This document shows positions 11,044 through 19,945 of a stretch of DNA of 32,000 nt, in pieces. Where the stretch lies: assembly GCA_000025185.1 (NCBI GenBank), contig CP001848.1, positions 5,400,001-5,432,000 on the forward strand, given 5' to 3'. The stretch comes from Pirellula staleyi DSM 6068 (lineage in GTDB: Bacteria; Planctomycetota; Planctomycetia; Pirellulales; Pirellulaceae). A program made the position numbers and the translations under genes. Position 1 is the stretch's first letter. Every line of letters begins with the position of its first letter. Below the pieces are notes generated by a model that was not told where the DNA came from, did no database searches, and saw nothing but the letters and a program-made list of their open reading frames with translations.

Positions 11044-11234
11044 TCCACTCCACCGTGGCACATAATGTGCCTAGCCGACTCGCCTGAACCACTCGAACGT
11101 CCCGTATAATACCGGGGAGTCGAGTCCCTCTCGATGCCCCGTCCAGGGCCGCATGCTTGCGTCGTGCAACCTGGCCCACCTCATCCACTCCCTCACCACC
11201 ACACTTCCTATCCACTTTCGTGAAGGATCTGCTG

Positions 11235-12317
11235 ATGAAAAATCGCCTACTTTCCTTGGTAACCCTCCTGGTCGGCCTGACCAGCGTCCATACGTCGGTC
11301 GTGGCGCAGCCTCCCGGAGTGGCGAGCAGCGGTCCTTCGATCGAGGCCAAAACACTCGGCAATATCAAGCAGCTGACCAGCGGGTTCGTGAAAGCGGGGG
11401 AAGGCTATTTCTCCCCCGATGGCAAGCAAATCGTCTATCAAGCTCAGCCGCTCGACTACCCGTTCTATCAAATCTTCCGGCAGTCGCTCGACGGTGGCCG
11501 CCCTTTGCAAATCAGCACCGGCCGGGGTCGCACCACCTGCAGCTATTTTTCGATCGACGGAACGAAGATCCTGTTCGCTTCGAGCCACCTCGATCCGGCC
11601 ATCGACGCCACCGAAGCGGCCGAGCGTAAGCAGCAGGAAGAAGACAAGAAGTCGGGGGTTCGTCGCCGCTACAAATGGGATTTCGATCCTTACACCGAGA
11701 TGTTCGAGGCTGATCTCGACGGGAAGATTTTGAAGCAGCTGACCAATGAGAAGGGGTACGACGCGGAAGGGGCCTACTCGAAGGATGGCAAACTGATCGC
11801 CTTTTGCAGCGACCGCGATGGGGATGCCGACCTCTATGTGATGAACAGCGACGGCACCGGCGTTCGCCAACTCACCAATGCCCCTGGCTACGATGGTGGT
11901 CCGTTCATTTCGCCCGATGGAAAGTGGGTGGTGTTCCGTAGCGATCGGAAAGAAAAAGATATGCTGCAGCTGTTTGTAATCGGCATCGATGGCAAAAATG
12001 AAACTCAGCTGACCGACACCAACGGTGTGAACTGGGGGCCATATTGGCACCCGAGCGAGCCGATCATCATTTGGTCGGGGGCAGACCATAGCGACCCAAC
12101 GGCACGTCCGAACTACGACCTGTGGGCTGCTCGCTACGAAATCGCCAGCGATGGGAAGTTCAAACTCGGCACCACGCAGCGCGTCACCGACTTCGCCGGG
12201 GCAGATGTTCTGCCGGTCTTCTCCCCTGACGGAAAAAAACTGATGTGGACCAGCACCCGCAGCGACGATCATAGCAGTCAGCTTTTCCTGGCCGACTTTC
12301 TCCTCGAGGTGAAATAG
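11235..12317 (+). CDS. TolB-like WD40/PD40 beta-propeller repeat protein, secreted
   Basis: Signal peptide MKNRLLSLVTLLVGLTSVHTSVVAQ after a GAAGGA RBS. Repeated PD40 motifs: SPDGKQIVYQA, SIDGTKILFAS, SKDGKLIAFCSDRDGDADLYVMNSDG, SPDGKWVVFRSDR, SPDGKKLMWTSTR. Confidence 0.75.
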   Translation: MKNRLLSLVTLLVGLTSVHTSVVAQPPGVASSGPSIEAKTLGNIKQLTSGFVKAGEGYFSPDGKQIVYQAQPLDYPFYQIFRQSLDGGRPLQISTGRGRTTCSYFSIDGTKILFASSHLDPAIDATEAAERKQQEEDKKSGVRRRYKWDFDPYTEMFEADLDGKILKQLTNEKGYDAEGAYSKDGKLIAFCSDRDGDADLYVMNSDGTGVRQLTNAPGYDGGPFISPDGKWVVFRSDRKEKDMLQLFVIGIDGKNETQLTDTNGVNWGPYWHPSEPIIIWSGADHSDPTARPNYDLWAARYEIASDGKFKLGTTQRVTDFAGADVLPVFSPDGKKLMWTSTRSDDHSSQLFLADFLLEVK

Positions 12318-12395
12318 CCTGCGCAAGCTGCCGTAGCAGTTGGCACCCCTGCGAGTGCCTTTGATTTCGCGTGCAATTCATGGAAGAATTTGGAT

Positions 12396-12868: not shown

Positions 12869-13699
12869 TCAGGCCGCCCCGCGACCTCCGCCCACATTGC
12901 GGCAGCGTTTTGAGCCACAGCCATAGGTGGCGCAGCTTCCAAAATAGCTCCAGCAATCGCGATGATGGCTCGTTTTGCAGGCGGTGCATTGCACGAGCGC
13001 TCCGCTCAATTCGTCGCTGCAGACAGGGCAGGCGGTTTTCACGTCGACGAGCACACGCTTCTCGGAAATGATTTCGATTCCTGAATTGCACGCACCTAGC
13101 GCGGCTTCATAGAGGTCGGCAGCGGCGTCGATAAACGCACTCACAATCTCGGCGCTGCCACTGCCACGCGGCTTGGTGATCGCCAAAAGGCCGCGCATCC
13201 AAGTCACTTCGAGATCGCGATAGCTGTACATCGAGCTCCGTTCGTGAAGTTTGTACAGCCTCACAATCTGATGCTGCACCGAAGGCGTAAGCAACTCGCG
13301 AACCGCGCGCTCGTCTTCTCCGCTGATCATAAACAGGTCGTCGAACACAAAATTACCGACCTGGATATCCTGCATCCCCATCAGCTTGCCAAGCTTTTTC
13401 ATCGCATCTTCGACTTGCAACTGACACCGAAAACGAGCTTCGGGCCACGGCAAGCGAATCACCATGTAGTCGACCTTACCGCGGCGCACGTACTCCAGTT
13501 CACCTTGGGTCGAACCGACTTGAATGGAGAGCTTGGTATTGCTGAAAAAGCCCCCGGCGTAGAGAAGCTTGCCACGATACTTGCGCACCACCTGCTGCAG
13601 GTTGGCTTGCGCTTGCTGCTGGCTCAAGGTCGCGACCACAAAAATGATAATTATGACCGCAATGAAGAGAAAAAAGCCGAAGACTGGTCCGTCGTTCAT
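12869..13699 (-). CDS. membrane-anchored RING-like zinc-finger protein (putative E3), paralogue B
   Basis: 276 aa. N-terminal TM helix FGFFLFIAVIIIIFVVATL. C-terminal CPVCSDELSGALVQCTACKTSHHRDCWSYFGSCATYGCG follows C-x2-C-x10-C-x2-C-x4-H-x2-C-x6-C-x4-C, coded about 12917-13030. The ATG overlaps the upstream stop (ATGA). Confidence 0.7.
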   Translation of the reverse strand: MNDGPVFGFFLFIAVIIIIFVVATLSQQQAQANLQQVVRKYRGKLLYAGGFFSNTKLSIQVGSTQGELEYVRRGKVDYMVIRLPWPEARFRCQLQVEDAMKKLGKLMGMQDIQVGNFVFDDLFMISGEDERAVRELLTPSVQHQIVRLYKLHERSSMYSYRDLEVTWMRGLLAITKPRGSGSAEIVSAFIDAAADLYEAALGACNSGIEIISEKRVLVDVKTACPVCSDELSGALVQCTACKTSHHRDCWSYFGSCATYGCGSKRCRNVGGGRGAA

Positions 13700-14649
13700 G
13701 GCTGACTCTCCACGGGAGGCCCGGAGTCGCTATTTTCGGTCGGTTGTTCCTTCTGGGGCGACAGCTGCGCGATGCGGGGGGCGACCGCCCGGGTTTCTCC
13801 ACAGCCAAACGTGCTGCAAGCACCGGCATATTCCCAGCAGTCGCGATGATAGGGAGTTTTGCACTTCACGCAGCTCACGATGTCGGTCTCCAAAGTTTCT
13901 CCGCACACCACGCATCTTGCGCCGTCGATCACCACCGCATCGCCGGGCGCGACGAATTCAATCCCTTCACTCGAGGTGATGAGCAGCTGATCGTACAGCC
14001 CCACGGCAATGTCGGTGAACTCGATGAGATCGGTGGGGCGGGTCGACAACCATCGCTTGCGAATCGTGAGCATGGTGCGAGCGCAATTGACTTCCGCCCA
14101 CGAACGTTCAGGGAAACGGACCAGCTGCTCGATCGCCGCGCGCACCCCGGTGGAAAGGGACGCCGTGGCATCGCTGGGAGTTCGGGCAATCGTCCGAAAC
14201 TGCTGGTCAAACTCTGGGTCACCCGAGAGGACTTCGAGCAGCGGTGGGGGCAACTCCACATGCGCATGGCTGGCATGTCGCGGAAGGACATCGAGACGCG
14301 GATAAACGCGTGGCAACGTCATGCTGATCTCGAGGACCGGCAGCGAATCGCTCGTGCCATAAGCGGCAACCGTGACACTGACCCAGCTCTCGCCATAGCG
14401 AAAGGTGGTGCGCGGGGCCGAGCCCCAGCTCGACGGCTGAAAGTTACCCCGGCGATTCTCGGCCAAGCGCGCCAGCTGCGCAGGCCAAGGGGCTTTCGAC
14501 GTCCCGACCGCCAGATAGATTGCGAGCCAGACGGCGGTGGCGATCAGGATCAAACCAGCCAGTAAGGCGCACGTCACAGCAACTTCCTTCGGACGGTTGC
14601 TCTTCGAGGAGCCCGACGCACGTTCCTCGGCCAGGGAGCAAGCTGCCAC
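13696..14649 (-). CDS. membrane-anchored RING-like zinc-finger protein (putative E3), paralogue A
   Basis: 317 aa. TM helix CALLAGLILIATAVWLAIYLAV. C-terminal CVVCGETLETDIVSCVKCKTPYHRDCWEYAGACSTFGCG has ligand spacing identical to paralogue B, coded about 13801-13914. GTG start 15 nt after the upstream stop. Confidence 0.7.
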   Translation of the reverse strand: MAACSLAEERASGSSKSNRPKEVAVTCALLAGLILIATAVWLAIYLAVGTSKAPWPAQLARLAENRRGNFQPSSWGSAPRTTFRYGESWVSVTVAAYGTSDSLPVLEISMTLPRVYPRLDVLPRHASHAHVELPPPLLEVLSGDPEFDQQFRTIARTPSDATASLSTGVRAAIEQLVRFPERSWAEVNCARTMLTIRKRWLSTRPTDLIEFTDIAVGLYDQLLITSSEGIEFVAPGDAVVIDGARCVVCGETLETDIVSCVKCKTPYHRDCWEYAGACSTFGCGETRAVAPRIAQLSPQKEQPTENSDSGPPVESQP

Positions 14650-14664
14650 CTCGCCAAACTGCCG

Positions 14665-15348
14665 TTATTCAGGACCAATGTACAGCACATCGCCATCGCC
14701 ACTGGCCGCAGGACGATTCGCGGGGCGGATCGCGCGTCGCTCGGGGAGTTTGGGAGAGGGAGTATTCTCGTCGATGAACATCACTTCGCTGCTCGCAGCA
14801 CCACCGAGGGTCGTCGGCTGACCAGCGACGCGGCTGTAGCGGACCACGTTGCTCGAGACCACTTGGGTTTGCCCCACCAGCGGGCGATTGTCGAGCGGCA
14901 AGGTGTAAGTCGTTTGCTTCTCGAGCCAGTTGCGGGCGGTGAAGTCGACAACGCGATCTTCGTTGACGTAAGCAAGTCGAATCGCGTCCCACAGACGTTC
15001 GCAAACAACATCGAGCGACAGGGCAGGGGACCAATTGAGCCCTAGATCTCCCAGGTTTACGAATCCGCTGAACGAAACATTCGGATGCACAATCGGCGTA
15101 AGCCAACGGACATCAGGCGGACTCTCGGGATAGGAAAATGGCAAACGGATTTCCACCTCGTGCAGTTCGCTGATCGCCATTTCGCTCGACATCGACGTGC
15201 CGCGCGCGAGCCCCTTGCCACGAAAGCGAAGCATGAACCGTTCGACCGGTTCTCCGGTGGCTTCCACTTCAAACACGCGGCTCTGCTCGGCCAGCTCACG
15301 AAGCTTTTTCACATCGCCCGTAATTCGGCTCGTTCGATCTTCGCTCAC
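14665..15348 (-). CDS. E2-fold (UBC-like) protein lacking the catalytic Cys, UEV-like
   Basis: 227 aa and collinear with the E2 at 18779-19546. HPN falls at residues 88-90 in both proteins. Here the sequence is IVHPNVSFSGFVNLG, with Asn98 (AAC, 15055-15057) where the paralogue has Cys98. GTG start overlaps the upstream stop (GTGA). Confidence 0.75.
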   Translation of the reverse strand: MSEDRTSRITGDVKKLRELAEQSRVFEVEATGEPVERFMLRFRGKGLARGTSMSSEMAISELHEVEIRLPFSYPESPPDVRWLTPIVHPNVSFSGFVNLGDLGLNWSPALSLDVVCERLWDAIRLAYVNEDRVVDFTARNWLEKQTTYTLPLDNRPLVGQTQVVSSNVVRYSRVAGQPTTLGGAASSEVMFIDENTPSPKLPERRAIRPANRPAASGDGDVLYIGPE

Positions 15349-16907
15349 GCATCACCTCCTTCACGCTCACTCGAGGTCGAGCGATTTTCCGTACCTGCCA
15401 CTGCATCCTTCGCACTCGGAGGCGAAGACTTACTCAGCACGTTCTTACTCGGTTTCGTAGCAGTGCTCGACTTGTCGTCCGAAATCGTTGCCACCGATTC
15501 AGTATGACCACTCGAGCCCCCGTTTGGCGAGCGGCGGACGAAAAAGGTGACAATCGCAGCCAAAAGCCCCCCACCACCGAGCAACGACAACCCGATGATG
15601 GCCTGCTTTCGGCTGAACAGCGTCGTCTCGGCTTCTCCCTCCGTTTCGGCAGGTTTCTCAGCCGCTGCTACGGTGGCAGGTGTCGTGCTGGCTTTCAGCT
15701 CCCGGAGGGCGATTTCGAGTTCCGTTTTTTTCGTTTCCAGCTGCTCCACGGTGTCGGCGAGGCTGGCGATTCGTTCCTCGCTCTCGACGCGGAGCGCTTC
15801 GAGCTTCTCGACCGTCGCCTGGTTACTCGCTTGCAGTTCGCTGATCATCACTCGCTGCGACTCGCTGATCTCGCGCAGCGATTCGGTTTGATCGTACTTG
15901 GCTTGCAGCCGCTCGACAAAACCGGGCTCGCTGCCGCGCAGCTCTCGCATCATGTCGTCGTAGAACTCGGCGCGAGCCTCGTCGCGCGATTGGCTGCGAC
16001 TTTGCTTTACCGTTTCATCGACACGCGCCGTGAGCGCTTGAGTAACGTCGATCAAATCTTTGCGAGTGACAGCGGGCGCCGTATTCGCGGGAGCTGTCTC
16101 CGCCACGGGAGGCGAGGCGATCTTCCACACCAGAATCGCCAACAGAACCAGCTGCGCAAACATACCGACCTGCCCAGCGAGCTGCTGCCAAACTGGTGGA
16201 GGGGGAGGAGGAGGCGTGGTATGCAAATGGACGTGCGAAGTTCCGGAAATCTGCTTCGATGTGCTGCTCATCAGCTGTATTTCCTCGGGGGCGGTGAGGG
16301 AAGCAACAAACTGCTCCAGCTCTTCCGCGCGGTGCCTGCTCGTCATCAAAAAAAAGCCGCCGGTCTGCTGCGTACGTGGCTTGCGACCGGTGGTCCACTG
16401 AAAGAACCCACGATCGCGCCGACAGGGATCGATCACGAGCGCCACATCGAGCGGCTTATTAAAAAAATTGTCGCAGATAAAGAGATCGAGCCCCGATAAA
16501 AACACACCCCAATCGGGATGCGTGTGATACCAGCCCACCATCTGTAGTTCGGCGGGAAATTCCTCGCGCGTCCGCGTGATCTGCTCCCACGTGTCGTGCG
16601 TGAATTTGAAACTTCCACGGGTGCTTTCGTAGTGCGCAGCGCGGAGACTATCGGTCACCATCACGAACGGCTGTTGCTGCTCGTCTTCACAAAAATAGCC
16701 GAGCATCACGCCACCCAGCTCGACCGTTTTGTCGCTCACGGCATGCAGTTCCATGTCGCGCGCCGCATCGAGGTCGACGTAGATGGGGAGCTCACCTTCG
16801 CGCAGCTTCCCCACGGCCTGCACTGTCAGTTGCCGATTCTGATCGGGACGCAAACGCCGAGCGTGCGAATCTTCTTTCAGCTCACCAAAATCGATGTCGG
16901 AGCTCAC
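15345..16907 (-). CDS. JAB/MPN+ (JAMM) metalloprotease with two TM helices flanking a coiled coil
   Basis: 520 aa. N-terminal JAB domain: E63 in TVELGG and GWYHTHPDWGVFLSGLD (H-x-H-x7-S-x2-D, about 16485-16526). A P7 run precedes TM1 (about aa 244-264). A heptad-like Glu/Leu/Gln-rich segment covers about aa 285-405. TM2 is IIGLSLLGGGGLLAAIVTFFV, followed by RR and a Ser-rich tail. GTG start overlaps the E1 stop. Confidence 0.8.
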   Translation of the reverse strand: MSSDIDFGELKEDSHARRLRPDQNRQLTVQAVGKLREGELPIYVDLDAARDMELHAVSDKTVELGGVMLGYFCEDEQQQPFVMVTDSLRAAHYESTRGSFKFTHDTWEQITRTREEFPAELQMVGWYHTHPDWGVFLSGLDLFICDNFFNKPLDVALVIDPCRRDRGFFQWTTGRKPRTQQTGGFFLMTSRHRAEELEQFVASLTAPEEIQLMSSTSKQISGTSHVHLHTTPPPPPPPVWQQLAGQVGMFAQLVLLAILVWKIASPPVAETAPANTAPAVTRKDLIDVTQALTARVDETVKQSRSQSRDEARAEFYDDMMRELRGSEPGFVERLQAKYDQTESLREISESQRVMISELQASNQATVEKLEALRVESEERIASLADTVEQLETKKTELEIALRELKASTTPATVAAAEKPAETEGEAETTLFSRKQAIIGLSLLGGGGLLAAIVTFFVRRSPNGGSSGHTESVATISDDKSSTATKPSKNVLSKSSPPSAKDAVAGTENRSTSSEREGGDA

Positions 16908-18121
16908 TGAGCAGGCTCCTTTTTCTCGCGCGACGCAGCATCGGCCGGGAGTTTCACGAGCACACGATCGCGATCGGCAGCGAGCAAAAAGAACCCTTCC
17001 TCGCCCGTTGCTTCGCGCGTGATGCGAACAATGTCGTACAGAGGAATCCCGAGCGTCTTCAGGGGCCGATCGGACCAGGGGCTCGACTCGTCAATCGCAT
17101 GCGTGCGATCGACCGACATTACTTCGCGGCATTCGCAAACGGCATCGCGAAACGTGACGAGTGGACTCGCGCGCACGATCTCGCGGACCGCTCCGCACTG
17201 GGCGCACTTCATTCCCGTGACCAAATCGCGATCGAGGTGCAACGTGAGTGGACCTTCCCCCGGCAGATGCGCGGCCGCTGCCGTAAACAGATCTTTCGCC
17301 GTCGCAGTTTCCGACGACAGCGGAAGGTCGATCGCAGTGGGATAAGTGTCGTGACTCAGGCAGTCTTCTTTGCGCTGATAGCGCGTGGTGTAGAACTGAT
17401 TGGTGAGACCGCTATAGACGTACGCTTCGCCCCCTTTGACCGGCAAACCGTGCATCACCTTGAGCGCTTCCTGCACTTCAATCGCGGCCATAATCGACGC
17501 ACTGGTCGGCGCTGTCGGCACTTTACCAGCAAGCAAATCCTCGCGCGGCAAAAGAGGGCAGCTATAGCGCAAGTTGATCAGTTTGTAGTCGTTTTCGGTC
17601 ATCCCGCATTCGTAGCAGGGGCTCTCGGGTGGCGTAAACACCTTCACCACGCCGCTGATCTCTTGAATGCCGGCGTCGATCCACGGGGTGCTCGTTTTCC
17701 AGCAGCAGCGATTGACCCACAGCCTCGCCTCGCGATTGTCGAGGCAGCCAATCGCCACGTCGATATCGCGAAAGAGCCCCAGCCCCAGTTCCGTCATCAC
17801 ATTTCCGCGAATGGGTGTGATGACCACATCGGGATTGATCTCGCTGGCCATTTCCGCAGCAACATGCGCTTTACTTTGTCCTTCGTGACGAGCACGGAAC
17901 AGCACGCTGCGTGTGAGGTTCGAGTTTTCGATCGTGTCGAGGTCGATCACAATCAGATGGCCCACCCCCACCATCACCAGGTTCTTAATCACTTCGTTAC
18001 CGAGCGCCCCAGCGCCAACCACCAGCACTCGCGAACGCTGCAGCTTCGCTTGATCCCACCAGCCAATGAGTCGCAGGCGACTATAGCGGTCGTCTTGATC
18101 GACAATCAGTGGCTCGGCCAT
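16904..18121 (-). CDS. E1-like ubiquitin-activating enzyme (ThiF/MoeB/HesA adenylation superfamily)
   Basis: 405 aa. RYSRLRLIGWWDQAKL, VLVVGAGALGNEVIKNL (GxGxxG), VIDLDTIENSNLTRSVLF, CLDNREAR, CYEC (C169/C172), RYSCPLL (C188), CAQC (C306/C309) and CEC. AGGAGAG RBS 9 nt before the ATG. Confidence 0.85.
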   Translation of the reverse strand: MAEPLIVDQDDRYSRLRLIGWWDQAKLQRSRVLVVGAGALGNEVIKNLVMVGVGHLIVIDLDTIENSNLTRSVLFRARHEGQSKAHVAAEMASEINPDVVITPIRGNVMTELGLGLFRDIDVAIGCLDNREARLWVNRCCWKTSTPWIDAGIQEISGVVKVFTPPESPCYECGMTENDYKLINLRYSCPLLPREDLLAGKVPTAPTSASIMAAIEVQEALKVMHGLPVKGGEAYVYSGLTNQFYTTRYQRKEDCLSHDTYPTAIDLPLSSETATAKDLFTAAAAHLPGEGPLTLHLDRDLVTGMKCAQCGAVREIVRASPLVTFRDAVCECREVMSVDRTHAIDESSPWSDRPLKTLGIPLYDIVRITREATGEEGFFLLAADRDRVLVKLPADAASREKKEPAQ

Positions 18122-18182
18122 CAGTGGGCTCTCCTGGAAACATAGGGGGCGTGATTAGAAATCGGTCGTAGCGCCGTGAGGA

Positions 18183-18719
18183 TCAGGCCAAACGGCCGGT
18201 CACAAAACCACAAGGCTCGATCTGCCGATCACGCCAGTGAAAGAACCCGAGTTCCTTGCGGCGCGGATCGACCACCATAGCGACATGCCACGGCTGGGGG
18301 AAAAAATTGTGGTGGATGAACTTGTCGTAGCTCGACAAAAAAATGCCGAAGTCGGGATGCGTATGATGCCAGCCGACGATGGAAAGTCCGGGATATTTCA
18401 GCTCGGCTTCGCGATGAAGCTCGGCCCATGTATCGTGCGTAAAGACAAGCGATGCTGCCCGCGACTTGGCTTCCGCAGCGGGATGAAAATGCTTGATCAC
18501 GACCAGCATCGGCTTGGTGCCATAGACGCCGCCGAGCAAGAACCCGCCACGCTCGCGACGCAAATCTTGCTCGGAAAACGCGATGATTTCATCGAGCACA
18601 TTCTGGGGCAACACAATCGCCGCGCTCGACAAATAGACCGTCCCGACCGATCGCGGAGACTGCAAATCTCCGAGAGAAAACGTGTCGGTAGTCGGTACGC
18701 TGGGCATGGGTTGTAGCAA
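18183..18719 (-). CDS. JAB/MPN+ (JAMM) metalloprotease, soluble paralogue
   Basis: 178 aa (TTG at 18719; alternative ATG at 18707). E in RRERGG and GWHHTHPDFGIFLSSYD (H-x-H-x7-S-x2-D). Strongly similar to the N-terminal domain of 15345-16907 (FTHDTW..., NFF, DP.R...GFF.W). Confidence 0.8.
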   Translation of the reverse strand: MLQPMPSVPTTDTFSLGDLQSPRSVGTVYLSSAAIVLPQNVLDEIIAFSEQDLRRERGGFLLGGVYGTKPMLVVIKHFHPAAEAKSRAASLVFTHDTWAELHREAELKYPGLSIVGWHHTHPDFGIFLSSYDKFIHHNFFPQPWHVAMVVDPRRKELGFFHWRDRQIEPCGFVTGRLA

Positions 18720-18778
18720 AACTTAAGGTCGTAGCGGATGGAAGAAAACAGGCACTCGCGCGCCCCGCGAGGCCGGGA

Positions 18779-19546
18779 CTAAACGAACTCAATCCCGTCA
18801 TCAGCTGGCGGCGACGGAGGACGCGACGACTCTGCGCGGCGCGGCGGCGGAACAGGAGGTCGCGTTGGCGCTGCGCGACGTGGCGGGAACGGCCCCGCCA
18901 CCGGCGCTGGGCCCGCTGGCTCAGCATCGTCGATGAAGAACAGTCCCTCTTCCTCGGCTGCAGGGACAATCTCGGCCTGCACGGCAGAAGAGGTCGGAGC
19001 CGCTGCGGCGGGTCGCTGCGCGGTCGATGGAGGAGGCTGATGGGTGGCAGCTTCGCGCGAGGCAACCAGATCGCGCAGCGGACGCGGATCGAGTGGCAAG
19101 ATGCCGGGACCTTGCGATTTCGACCAGAGAGCCGCTTCGCGATTGTAAGGGCTGTTGGGGTCGTAGTTCTCGTAGCGAATCATGTCCCACAGCATCGTGC
19201 AGAGCTCGTCGAGCATCAAACTTGGGACCCAGTGCTTTCCATATCCTCCCAGGCAGACAATGCCGCCAGCCGAGATATTGGGGTGAAACACCGGGGATTT
19301 CCACGAGAGTTCGGGCATCGAGCGGGGGTATGAAGCCCCCAGACGCACATGCACTTCGTGAACTGCCAGCAGACGGGGCGCTTGTGCAGGGTCGGGACGA
19401 TACGCCCCACGACCATGAAATCGCAGCACGTAATATTCCGGCGGATTGCCGGTCGCTTCAAAGCGAAAAATGCTGCTGTCAGCGGCCAGTTGTGTTAGCA
19501 AGCGATGATCGCTAGCCAGTCGACGTTGACGAGGAGATTCGCGCAC
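18779..19546 (-). CDS. E2-like ubiquitin-conjugating enzyme with catalytic Cys
   Basis: 255 aa. UBC-core signature YPRSMPELSWKSPVFHPNISAGGIVCLG (HPN then Cys98, TGC at 19253-19255). A roughly 95-aa Pro/Ala-rich tail ends DDGIEFV. GTG start with GGAGGGAG RBS. Confidence 0.85.
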   Translation of the reverse strand: MRESPRQRRLASDHRLLTQLAADSSIFRFEATGNPPEYYVLRFHGRGAYRPDPAQAPRLLAVHEVHVRLGASYPRSMPELSWKSPVFHPNISAGGIVCLGGYGKHWVPSLMLDELCTMLWDMIRYENYDPNSPYNREAALWSKSQGPGILPLDPRPLRDLVASREAATHQPPPSTAQRPAAAAPTSSAVQAEIVPAAEEEGLFFIDDAEPAGPAPVAGPFPPRRAAPTRPPVPPPRRAESSRPPSPPADDGIEFV

Positions 19547-19565
19547 CGATGTATCGTCTCCCTCC

Positions 19566-19586
19566 GCGCGAGCAAAAACCTCGCGC
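19566..19586 (-). promoter_or_regulatory. intercistronic stem-loop abutting the E2 Shine-Dalgarno
   Basis: gcgcgag-caaaaac-ctcgcgc is a perfect 7-bp stem. On the mRNA it sits immediately 5' of GGAGGGAG (19558-19565). The function is inferred. Confidence 0.3.
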
Positions 19587-19657
19587 AGAACTTCCCAGTA
19601 GAGATGTCGATGACAAGTCTGCGCCGGCCACCATGGCTGAGCGCAGCTACCGACAAC

Positions 19658-19945
19658 TTAACCCGCGACGATCTCGGGATAAACAATCAAATGATGTCCA
19701 TCCTGAACACCGGCAGCGGGAAGCGTTTGATCTTCCTGCAAACGGCGGCCACCCTCTTTATGATCGAGGCTGTAGCTCATCGGCTGACCATCAGGGCCCA
19801 TCACCGGCAGATTCATCTTGGTGATGATGTTGGGCAGAATGCGTTTGGCAGTCACGGTGTCGGCGATCACCGCCTCGACACTCTTGGCGCCAGTCTGATC
19901 GAGAAACGTAACTCGTGTACCTTTTCGCTCCGTTTGTTCACTCAC
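19658..19945 (-). CDS. ubiquitin-like (beta-grasp) small protein ending in Gly
   Basis: 95 aa. GTG start preceded by AAGGGAG. The C-terminal half GRRLQEDQTLPAAGVQDGHHLIVYPEIVAG-stop parallels ubiquitin [30 protein letters not shown]. First gene of the operon. The fold assignment is inferred, not computed. Confidence 0.7.
   Translation of the reverse strand: MSEQTERKGTRVTFLDQTGAKSVEAVIADTVTAKRILPNIITKMNLPVMGPDGQPMSYSLDHKEGGRRLQEDQTLPAAGVQDGHHLIVYPEIVAG

Follow-up and report, generated by a model that had tools for sequence, protein, structure and literature searches.

The window analysed here, a 32,000-nucleotide stretch of Pirellula staleyi DSM 6068 (GenBank assembly GCA_000025185.1, contig CP001848.1, positions 5,400,001 to 5,432,000 of the forward strand), contains eight minus-strand genes at 12869-19945 that are predicted to encode a ubiquitin-like conjugation system. 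Their order is Ubl-E2-JAB-E1-JAB-UEV-RING-RING, where Ubl stands for the ubiquitin-like protein and UEV for a ubiquitin E2 variant without the active-site cysteine. Two of these genes encode JAB/MPN+ proteins, one short and soluble, the other long and carrying two predicted transmembrane (TM) helices. We consider it probable that each works on its own as an active JAMM isopeptidase ("eraser") and that both serve a single Ubl conjugation system centred on the membrane. The genes, with coordinates counted from the first nucleotide of the window, are as follows:

19658-19945, minus strand: YukD-like Ubl, C-terminus ...VAG (Pfam YukD, E = 1.5e-16, and sequence)
18779-19546, minus strand: E2 with catalytic Cys, HPN...C (Pfam UQ_con, E = 9e-12, and sequence)
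18183-18719, minus strand: short soluble JAB/MPN+ protein (open reading frame (ORF) and translation, Pfam JAB and Prok-JAB, motif regular expression)
16904-18121, minus strand: E1 of the ThiF family, between the two JAB genes (Pfam ThiF, E = 7.7e-56)
15345-16907, minus strand: long JAB/MPN+ protein, 520 aa (ORF and translation, Pfam JAB and Prok-JAB, AlphaFold2 (AF2) model)
14665-15348, minus strand: UEV-like E2 paralogue, active-site Cys replaced by Asn (Pfam UQ_con, E = 1.1e-11)
13696-14649, minus strand: Prok-RING_1 protein with N-terminal TM anchor (Pfam PF14446, E ~1e-12)
12869-13699, minus strand: second Prok-RING_1 protein with N-terminal TM anchor (Pfam PF14446, E ~1e-12)

The full set lies on one strand and comprises a Ubl ending in Gly, a ThiF-type E1, a UQ_con E2 that has the catalytic Cys, Prok-RING_1 and JAB. 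The E1 stop codon and the GTG start of the long JAB gene overlap by 4 nt, and the long JAB stop codon overlaps the start of the gene for the Cys-less E2. In the latter protein, HPNVSFSGFVNLGD aligns to HPNISAGGIVCLGG of the active E2, so that Asn takes the place of the catalytic Cys. The anchors of the two Prok-RING_1 proteins are hydrophobic segments at their N-termini. Genome-wide there are two JABs of this type and two copies of Prok-RING_1, all of them in the operon. The arrangement Ubl-E2-[JAB]-E1-JAB(TM)-[UEV]-RING is kept in six other Pirellulaceae genera and is rearranged in other phyla. Since the C-terminal Gly of the Ubl is already exposed, the JABs appear unnecessary for Ubl maturation.

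A sequence-only reading of this DNA had described both paralogues as MPN+ proteins that keep every JAMM ligand, and this description is confirmed. The residues and segments concerned are:

18552-18554, minus strand: catalytic Glu56, short protein
18324-18365, minus strand: JAMM motif, short protein, H119-T-H121-x7-S129-x2-D132 (regular expression)
18392-18409, minus strand: FTHDTW segment, Ins-1 region, short protein
16719-16721, minus strand: catalytic Glu63, long protein (aligned with CSN5 catalytic residues)
16485-16526, minus strand: JAMM motif, long protein, H128-T-H130-x7-S138-x2-D141 (regular expression)
16590-16607, minus strand: FTHDTW segment, Ins-1 region, long protein, aa 102-107
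16293-16829, minus strand: MPN/JAB fold, long protein, aa 27-205 (AF2, predicted local distance difference test (pLDDT) >90 over most of the domain)

The long protein has at least 849 homologues, and conservation was assessed in the best 120; of these, 111 have two TM helices, and the alignment comprises 104 sequences. Glu63, H128, H130, S138 and D141 are invariant in the aligned sequences (104/104), and the HxH-S-D motif is found in 120/120 long and 120/120 short homologues. The Glu is apparently absent from three short homologues, cases that are regular-expression or fragment artefacts. Such invariance across homologues of both JABs goes well past what chance would give and indicates that the catalytic residues of both families are under selection.

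Both proteins exceed the Pfam gathering cut-offs (PF01398, PF14464), the long one with 36.1 bits for JAB (cut-off 22.5) and 25.9 for Prok-JAB (cut-off 25), the short one with 32.4 and 30.4 bits, respectively. The AF2 model of the long protein was built on 104 homologues, and its top Foldseek matches are Rpn11, CSN5, Rpn8 and CsRpn11 from Caldiarchaeum, with TM-scores of up to 0.73 when normalised to target length. Searching PDB sequences with phmmer gave CSN5 and Rpn11 for the long protein (E ~2e-6, catalytic residues aligned) and AMSH/STAMBP as the best match for the short one (E = 3e-7), with CSN5 and CsRpn11 also matched; the Caldiarchaeum Rpn11 homologue is thus hit by both JABs. Assignment of the MPN fold comes from sequence matches for the short protein, and from sequence together with AF2 and Foldseek for the long one. 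Aligned to each other by BLASTP, the two share 45% identity over a 111-aa catalytic core (E = 8e-28). The FTHDTW-type segment is a family signature that was not seen in the CSN5 alignment; the pattern FTH[DE][ST]W occurs in 119/120 long and 109/120 short homologues, and in most relatives the consensus reads TFTHETW. As regards gene starts, a 520-aa database protein is identical to the long JAB and the family consensus begins at the same residue. The longest ORF of the short gene opens with TTG at 18719 (178 aa), but the database protein (P0121) and the short homologues begin at ATG 18707 (174 aa), which is probably the true start.

Downstream of its catalytic domain, the long protein is laid out as follows:

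16191-16238, minus strand: Pro-rich juxtamembrane linker, aa 224-239, with PPPPPPPP at 232-239 (sequence)
16113-16181, minus strand: TM1, aa 243-265 (Kyte-Doolittle 1.97, peak 243-261; AF2 helix 239-264)
15603-16112, minus strand: inter-TM loop, aa 266-435, probably periplasmic (AF2, periodicity)
15534-15602, minus strand: TM2, aa 436-458, Gly-rich, then RR (Kyte-Doolittle 2.08, peak 437-455)
15348-15533, minus strand: C-terminal tail, aa 459-520, Ser/Thr/Lys-rich, disordered (pLDDT <50)

The poly-Pro run, TM1 and TM2 with its trailing RR had all been singled out in the sequence-only reading, and all are present. TM helices were called from 19-residue Kyte-Doolittle means at a threshold of 1.6. 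By this measure, TM1 lies at the same position in 120/120 homologues and both helices are found in 111/120, with a spacing of 162 +/- 8 aa. Nine homologues are without two TM helices: four are truncated (304-384 aa), and five are full length (478-485 aa) with one segment above 1.6. Conservation at this level, hydropathy values near 2.0 and the helices of the AF2 model agree with the earlier view that the long protein is built into the membrane. The short protein, by comparison, has no hydrophobic segment above 1.3 on the Kyte-Doolittle scale.

Expressed as the mean fraction of the top residue, conservation falls from 0.88 in the JAB domain to 0.69 in TM1, 0.37 in the loop and 0.15 in the tail. 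Within the linker, conservation reaches 90% or more at P224, P231 and P238; a run of at least 4 Pro occurs in just 21/120 homologues, and a Pro-rich juxtamembrane linker is general. TM1 contains an invariant Gln (Q252, 104/104) and five residues that are at least 90% conserved (G247, L249, L258, A260, W261), as are W438 and G446 in TM2. The Gln252 codon is at window positions 16152-16154, in the middle of TM1, and a polar, invariant residue at this site suggests that TM1 packs specifically against another helix, be it TM2 or one in a partner, for instance the RING anchors. The tail, said earlier to be Ser/Lys-rich, has 15 Ser and 5 Lys among its 62 residues; its mean length across the family is 32 aa.

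A reading in which the long JAB is soluble or peripheral, its hydrophobic segments packing like the C-terminal helices of proteasome-lid MPN subunits and not spanning the membrane, strikes us as very unlikely. It can draw on the Foldseek alignment of ~330 columns to full-length Rpn8/Rpn11, which takes in the C-terminal helices at a root-mean-square deviation >25 A, on the low pLDDT of TM2 and on positive-inside statistics that prove uninformative. However, segments with Kyte-Doolittle means of ~2.0 hold fixed positions in 111/120 homologues despite diverging surroundings, and relatives carry a TM helix at the equivalent place, followed by LysM.

These relatives were collected by searching the whole library with the short JAB as query. 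At E <= 1e-10 this returned 2857 cluster representatives, of which the best 149 were examined. A TM helix ~90 aa after the JAMM motif is present in 108 of these 149, and Pfam LysM in 49/113 of the longer representatives among them. A search for LysM-like motifs found 26 of these 49, and 21 have the order JAMM, TM, LysM. One example in its operon context comes from a Candidatus Zipacnadia metagenome-assembled genome (L039:3058-8737), which reads Ubl-E1-JAB(TM, LysM)-JAB-E2-RING-JAB and has three MPN+ JABs. Its membrane JAB directly follows E1 and is composed of JAB (25-130), TM (203-221) and LysM (261-308). Operons of other Planctomycetota families (L022-L030, L033) take the form Ubl-E1-JAB(1 TM + helical tail), a gap of ~2 kb, 2 to 4 RING genes and E2. 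The post-E1 JAB in these families has one TM helix ~105 aa past the motif and then a charged helical tail of 150-200 aa, and in single-TM relatives the only Pfam signal from the region outside the membrane was sub-threshold coiled-coil noise.

Other relatives have no membrane segment. Some Pirellulaceae genera (L034-L037) have a soluble post-E1 JAB of 217-264 aa in an operon cut to Ubl-E2-E1-JAB-(RING), which indicates that the membrane tether was lost or never gained in some lineages of the family. Compact E1-Ubl-E2-soluble-JAB operons occur in two further families (L031 and L032, families f90 and f118), with no RING gene within the stretch fetched; their Ubls are 68-77% identical to that of the window, and the Ubls of single-TM operons roughly 40%. 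A third variation is provided by six tandem JAB-JAB-TM fusions (P0243-P0250) of 600-1100 aa, in which two complete JAMM domains precede one TM helix. They end in a large outer region that is Pro-rich or beta-rich. The idea that they represent short and long JABs fused together was rejected, both domains being nearer the short type by BLASTP bit score.

The LysM relatives bear directly on topology. In the sequence-only reading, the JAB domain and tail were placed in the cytoplasm, and the loop on the other side of the membrane, by the positive-inside rule. The rule gives no support here: across 111 homologues, the flanks supposed to be cytoplasmic have on average 2.4 K+R within 15 aa of the TM ends and those supposed to face outward 3.0, the inside being richer in just 24/111, so that the charges are neutral to slightly contrary. 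The same topology is nonetheless likely on other grounds. The N-terminus of the long protein is hydrophilic and without a signal peptide, and an ATP-dependent conjugation cascade should need to be cytoplasmic. LysM binds peptidoglycan. Its position after the TM helix makes the post-TM part extracytoplasmic in the LysM homologues and, by position, probably also in the Pirellulaceae loop. We therefore favour a JAB domain inside and a loop outside; the tail, beyond TM2, would again be cytoplasmic.

The loop itself consists of a Pro/Ala-rich spacer, a helix (280-324), a break (325-329), a second helix (330-408) and another spacer in the AF2 model. pLDDT is 90-97 across 340-400, and a single-sequence model of the TM1-loop-TM2 fragment agrees. 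A hydrophobic period of 3.5 is the top period in 100/111 family loops (mean z = 6 against shuffles), and the loop contains no Cys. The proposal of a periplasmic coiled coil is therefore sustained as far as a helical loop with family-wide heptad periodicity is concerned, but the loop is two helices separated at G325/P328/G329, not one continuous coiled coil, and the signal of the window's own loop is modest (z = 2.8). On these data the TM helices and the coiled-coil character can be taken as real family properties. Pfam domains and PDB fold matches were sought for the loop and none was found, and the TM1-loop-TM2 fragment, folded alone and searched against the PDB for a sensor or hairpin fold, returned nothing better than E = 5. 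A 21-bit match to TIGR04211 'SH3_and_anchor' (cut-off 65) was set aside as reflecting only a coiled coil plus an anchor.

With this layout in hand, we considered whether the long JAB might be a transmembrane signalling deubiquitinase, in which the periplasmic coiled coil senses the envelope or wall and switches the isopeptidase through TM1 and TM2 in the manner of two-TM sensors. Two TM helices around a ~160-aa extracytoplasmic helical loop do resemble sensor kinases and chemoreceptors. TM1 is highly conserved around its invariant polar Gln252, TM2 keeps W438 and G446, the membrane-proximal first half of the loop retains a partly conserved charged pattern, and relatives have a wall-binding LysM at the same position. 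Yet the loop is the least conserved folded part of the protein (0.37) and matches no ligand-binding domain or known fold in Pfam or the PDB. TM1 and the JAB domain are joined just by the Pro-rich linker, which is modelled at low confidence, and not by a HAMP-like or other transducing module. Helix-pair motions within one chain would be impossible in the single-TM relatives, and soluble variants exist as well. We regard such signalling as unlikely, and the envelope-state sensing put forward in the sequence-only reading as speculation, given a loop conserved at 0.37 against 0.88 for the JAB domain, the lack of a known domain and the existence of soluble relatives.

The relationship between the two JABs was addressed with a maximum-likelihood tree of 27 JAB domains. 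The Pirellulaceae post-E1 JABs, two-TM forms plus the four soluble ones, make up one clade (support 95/93); the short soluble JABs, including those of L031 and L032 where the protein is the sole JAB, form a second (96/94); and the single-TM JABs a third (99/97). Separate, well-supported clades imply that the short/long pair is old and not a recent duplication. Two operons from other genera (L020, L021) are otherwise intact but run from E2 straight to E1 with no short JAB, and each of these genomes has a single JAB match; the short JAB thus appears to be an optional and not an obligate partner. A survey of 250 Pirellulaceae species genomes in 126 genera, with five JAB candidates scored per genome, found the two-TM form in 121/250 genomes and 71/126 genera, and among the 121 positive genomes ~45 have one JAB match and ~76 at least two. 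The two-TM form was not found in 400 other Planctomycetota genomes, in which matches covered the JAB domain only.

These results weigh on a further alternative, that the short and long JABs pair up as an MPN+/MPN+ heterodimer, a counterpart of Rpn11-Rpn8 or CSN5-CSN6 in which both subunits would be active and the long protein would dock the pair at the membrane. MPN domains often dimerise, Rpn8-Rpn11, CSN5-CSN6 and BRCC36-Abraxas being dimers of this kind, and Foldseek matched Rpn11 and Rpn8 chains alike. In the six tandem proteins, a single chain contains two complete JAMM domains and then a TM helix, multi-JAB operons recur (L039), and at least two JAB matches are present in ~76/121 positive genomes. 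Against this, at least two genera (L020, L021) have intact operons with no short JAB, ~45/121 positive genomes have a single match with five candidates scored in each, and the paralogues belong to separate old clades, the short one supplying the sole JAB of the RING-less L031 and L032 operons. Moreover, both domains of the tandem fusions are nearer the short type, and do not represent short plus long. A heterodimer of the two JABs is in our judgement quite unlikely. The sequence-only reading had contrasted the MPN+ pair with eukaryotic Rpn11/Rpn8-type pairs, a contrast that presumes a heterodimer and loses its footing with separate clades and with the L020 and L021 operons.

Two independent erasers are the interpretation that we prefer, and a mechanism can be outlined on this basis. 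The long JAB would be an integral inner-membrane protein whose N-terminal Rpn11/CSN5-like domain sits in the cytoplasm on a Pro-rich tether. TM1 would lead outward, the ~160-aa helical coiled-coil loop would lie in the periplasm, and TM2 would return the chain to a short, disordered cytoplasmic tail. Such an arrangement would keep the catalytic domain on the membrane face that it shares with both TM-anchored RING E3s, where we infer that it may strip the YukD-like Ubl off targets close to the membrane or off the ligases. The placing of an eraser beside membrane-bound E3s, also proposed earlier, is backed by the conserved TM helices of the long JAB and the TM anchors of both Prok-RING_1 proteins. 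Because the loop stands in place of the LysM or single-pass helical tail of related operons, its most likely role is to fix the position or spacing of the enzyme with respect to the envelope, or to bring about oligomerisation; ligand binding is less likely. The short paralogue would be an ancient, optional soluble eraser serving cytosolic conjugates or Ubl recycling.

Several observations weigh against this scheme. TM2 is of low confidence in the AF2 model, the heptad signal of the window's own loop is modest, and the distribution of K+R is inside-heavy in few homologues. The soluble post-E1 JABs of some Pirellulaceae show that the system can do without a membrane tether. TM1, with its invariant Gln252, is better conserved than a plain anchor requires, which leaves room for a signalling or assembly role, and the tandem fusions hint that a pair of MPN+ domains can function together. 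A bolder extension of the scheme is outside-in coupling with the membrane JAB as its cytoplasmic output, in which a coiled coil fixed to the cell wall or envelope, or reading it, would set where and when RING-written Ubl marks are erased; in relatives, LysM or a helical tail would take the part of the coiled coil. We hold this to be improbable. If true, it would amount to spatially addressed control of bacterial inner-membrane proteins, akin to endoplasmic-reticulum-associated degradation or endocytic sorting. The short JAB would then be a further MPN+ eraser in soluble form, and the E2/UEV pair would handle chains.

The surroundings of the operon differ from genome to genome. In the window, it is flanked by genes for an ammonium transporter, GlnD, a cobalamin adenosyltransferase, a PD40 propeller and DUF1501 plus PSD1, and these genes were not found beside the operon in the relatives compared. 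The patchy spread of the two-TM form (121/250), together with the differing flanking genes, bears on whether the system is a housekeeping or an accessory one. The gene for the PD40 (TolB-like) beta-propeller lies on the plus strand at 11157-12317, and overlaps a minus-strand ORF of 359 aa (11247-12326) that has no Pfam match and is probably spurious. A scan for promoters and terminators was uninformative: it found no promoter-like site, and its 13 terminator-like sites compare with an expectation of 8.3 +/- 3.2.

Burroughs, Iyer and Aravind predicted operons of this type, with a YukD-like Ubl, E1, E2, Prok-RING_1 and JAB, in 2011 (Mol Biosyst; PMC5938088), a prediction to which PMC3417536 and PMC7159879 refer. 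The component families of that class are the ones present here: a YukD-like Ubl with a C-terminal Gly, ThiF, UQ_con, PF14446 and JAB. No experimental study of the operon type was found in the literature searched. What appears particular to the present case is the two-TM coiled-coil form of the eraser and its old soluble MPN+ paralogue.

Several bacterial systems invite comparison. BilC of the Bil system and Cap3 of CBASS (cyclic-oligonucleotide-based antiphage signalling systems) are bacterial JAB isopeptidases that reverse conjugation by their cognate E1 and E2. The Bil and CBASS systems are without RING E3 and membrane anchoring, however, whereas the window operon has RING E3s and a UEV. Matches in PADLOC and NCBIfam are weak and at the level of domains (BilC, E = 1.8e-4; 6A-MBL model, 25 bits against a cut-off of 320). 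Membership of a defence system or named family was rejected on these grounds, the matches lying far below cut-offs, and the operon is not Bil, Bub or CBASS. In comparison with two-TM sensors of the chemoreceptor and histidine kinase type, the long JAB has no recognisable sensor domain or transducing module. Its close counterparts include the JAB-TM-LysM and JAB-TM-helical-tail proteins (L039, L022-L033), which share the post-E1 position, the FTH[DE][ST]W segment and a TM helix 90-110 aa past the motif. Those relatives are single-pass, while the long JAB of the window would re-enter through TM2 and end in a cytoplasmic tail.

Among eukaryotic enzymes, Rpn11/PSMD14, CSN5 and AMSH/STAMBP have the same fold and the full Glu/HxH/Ser/Asp site, at ~20% identity. 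Rpn11 and CSN5 act with an MPN- partner inside large complexes, and AMSH is recruited peripherally to endosomes; to our knowledge, none of these enzymes is an integral membrane protein. An Rpn11-Rpn8-type heterodimer differs in two respects from what we find, since neither JAB is MPN- and co-occurrence is not obligate (L020, L021). That the second JAB is old and optional argues against seeing in the pair an early stage of the MPN+/MPN- dimers of eukaryotes. A further comparison is offered by CsRpn11, from the Ub-E1-E2-RING-Rpn11 operon of Caldiarchaeum subterraneum (PDB 6FJV/6FJU; PMC6043591, PMC5654768), a prokaryotic Rpn11-like MPN+ enzyme in a Ub/E1/E2/RING operon that is matched here by both sequence and fold. 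CsRpn11 is single and soluble and also processes the Ub precursor, in contrast to a Ubl with no need of processing and two JABs, one of them in the membrane. The operons described here unite E1, E2, a UEV-like E2 and RING E3s with Rpn11-like erasers and a Ubl whose C-terminal Gly needs no unmasking. Across them, the eraser encoded after E1 usually sits in the membrane and has a portion outside the cytoplasm, which is LysM in many lineages and the two-TM coiled-coil loop in Pirellulaceae, and this pattern points to the inner membrane and the envelope as the place where the system acts.

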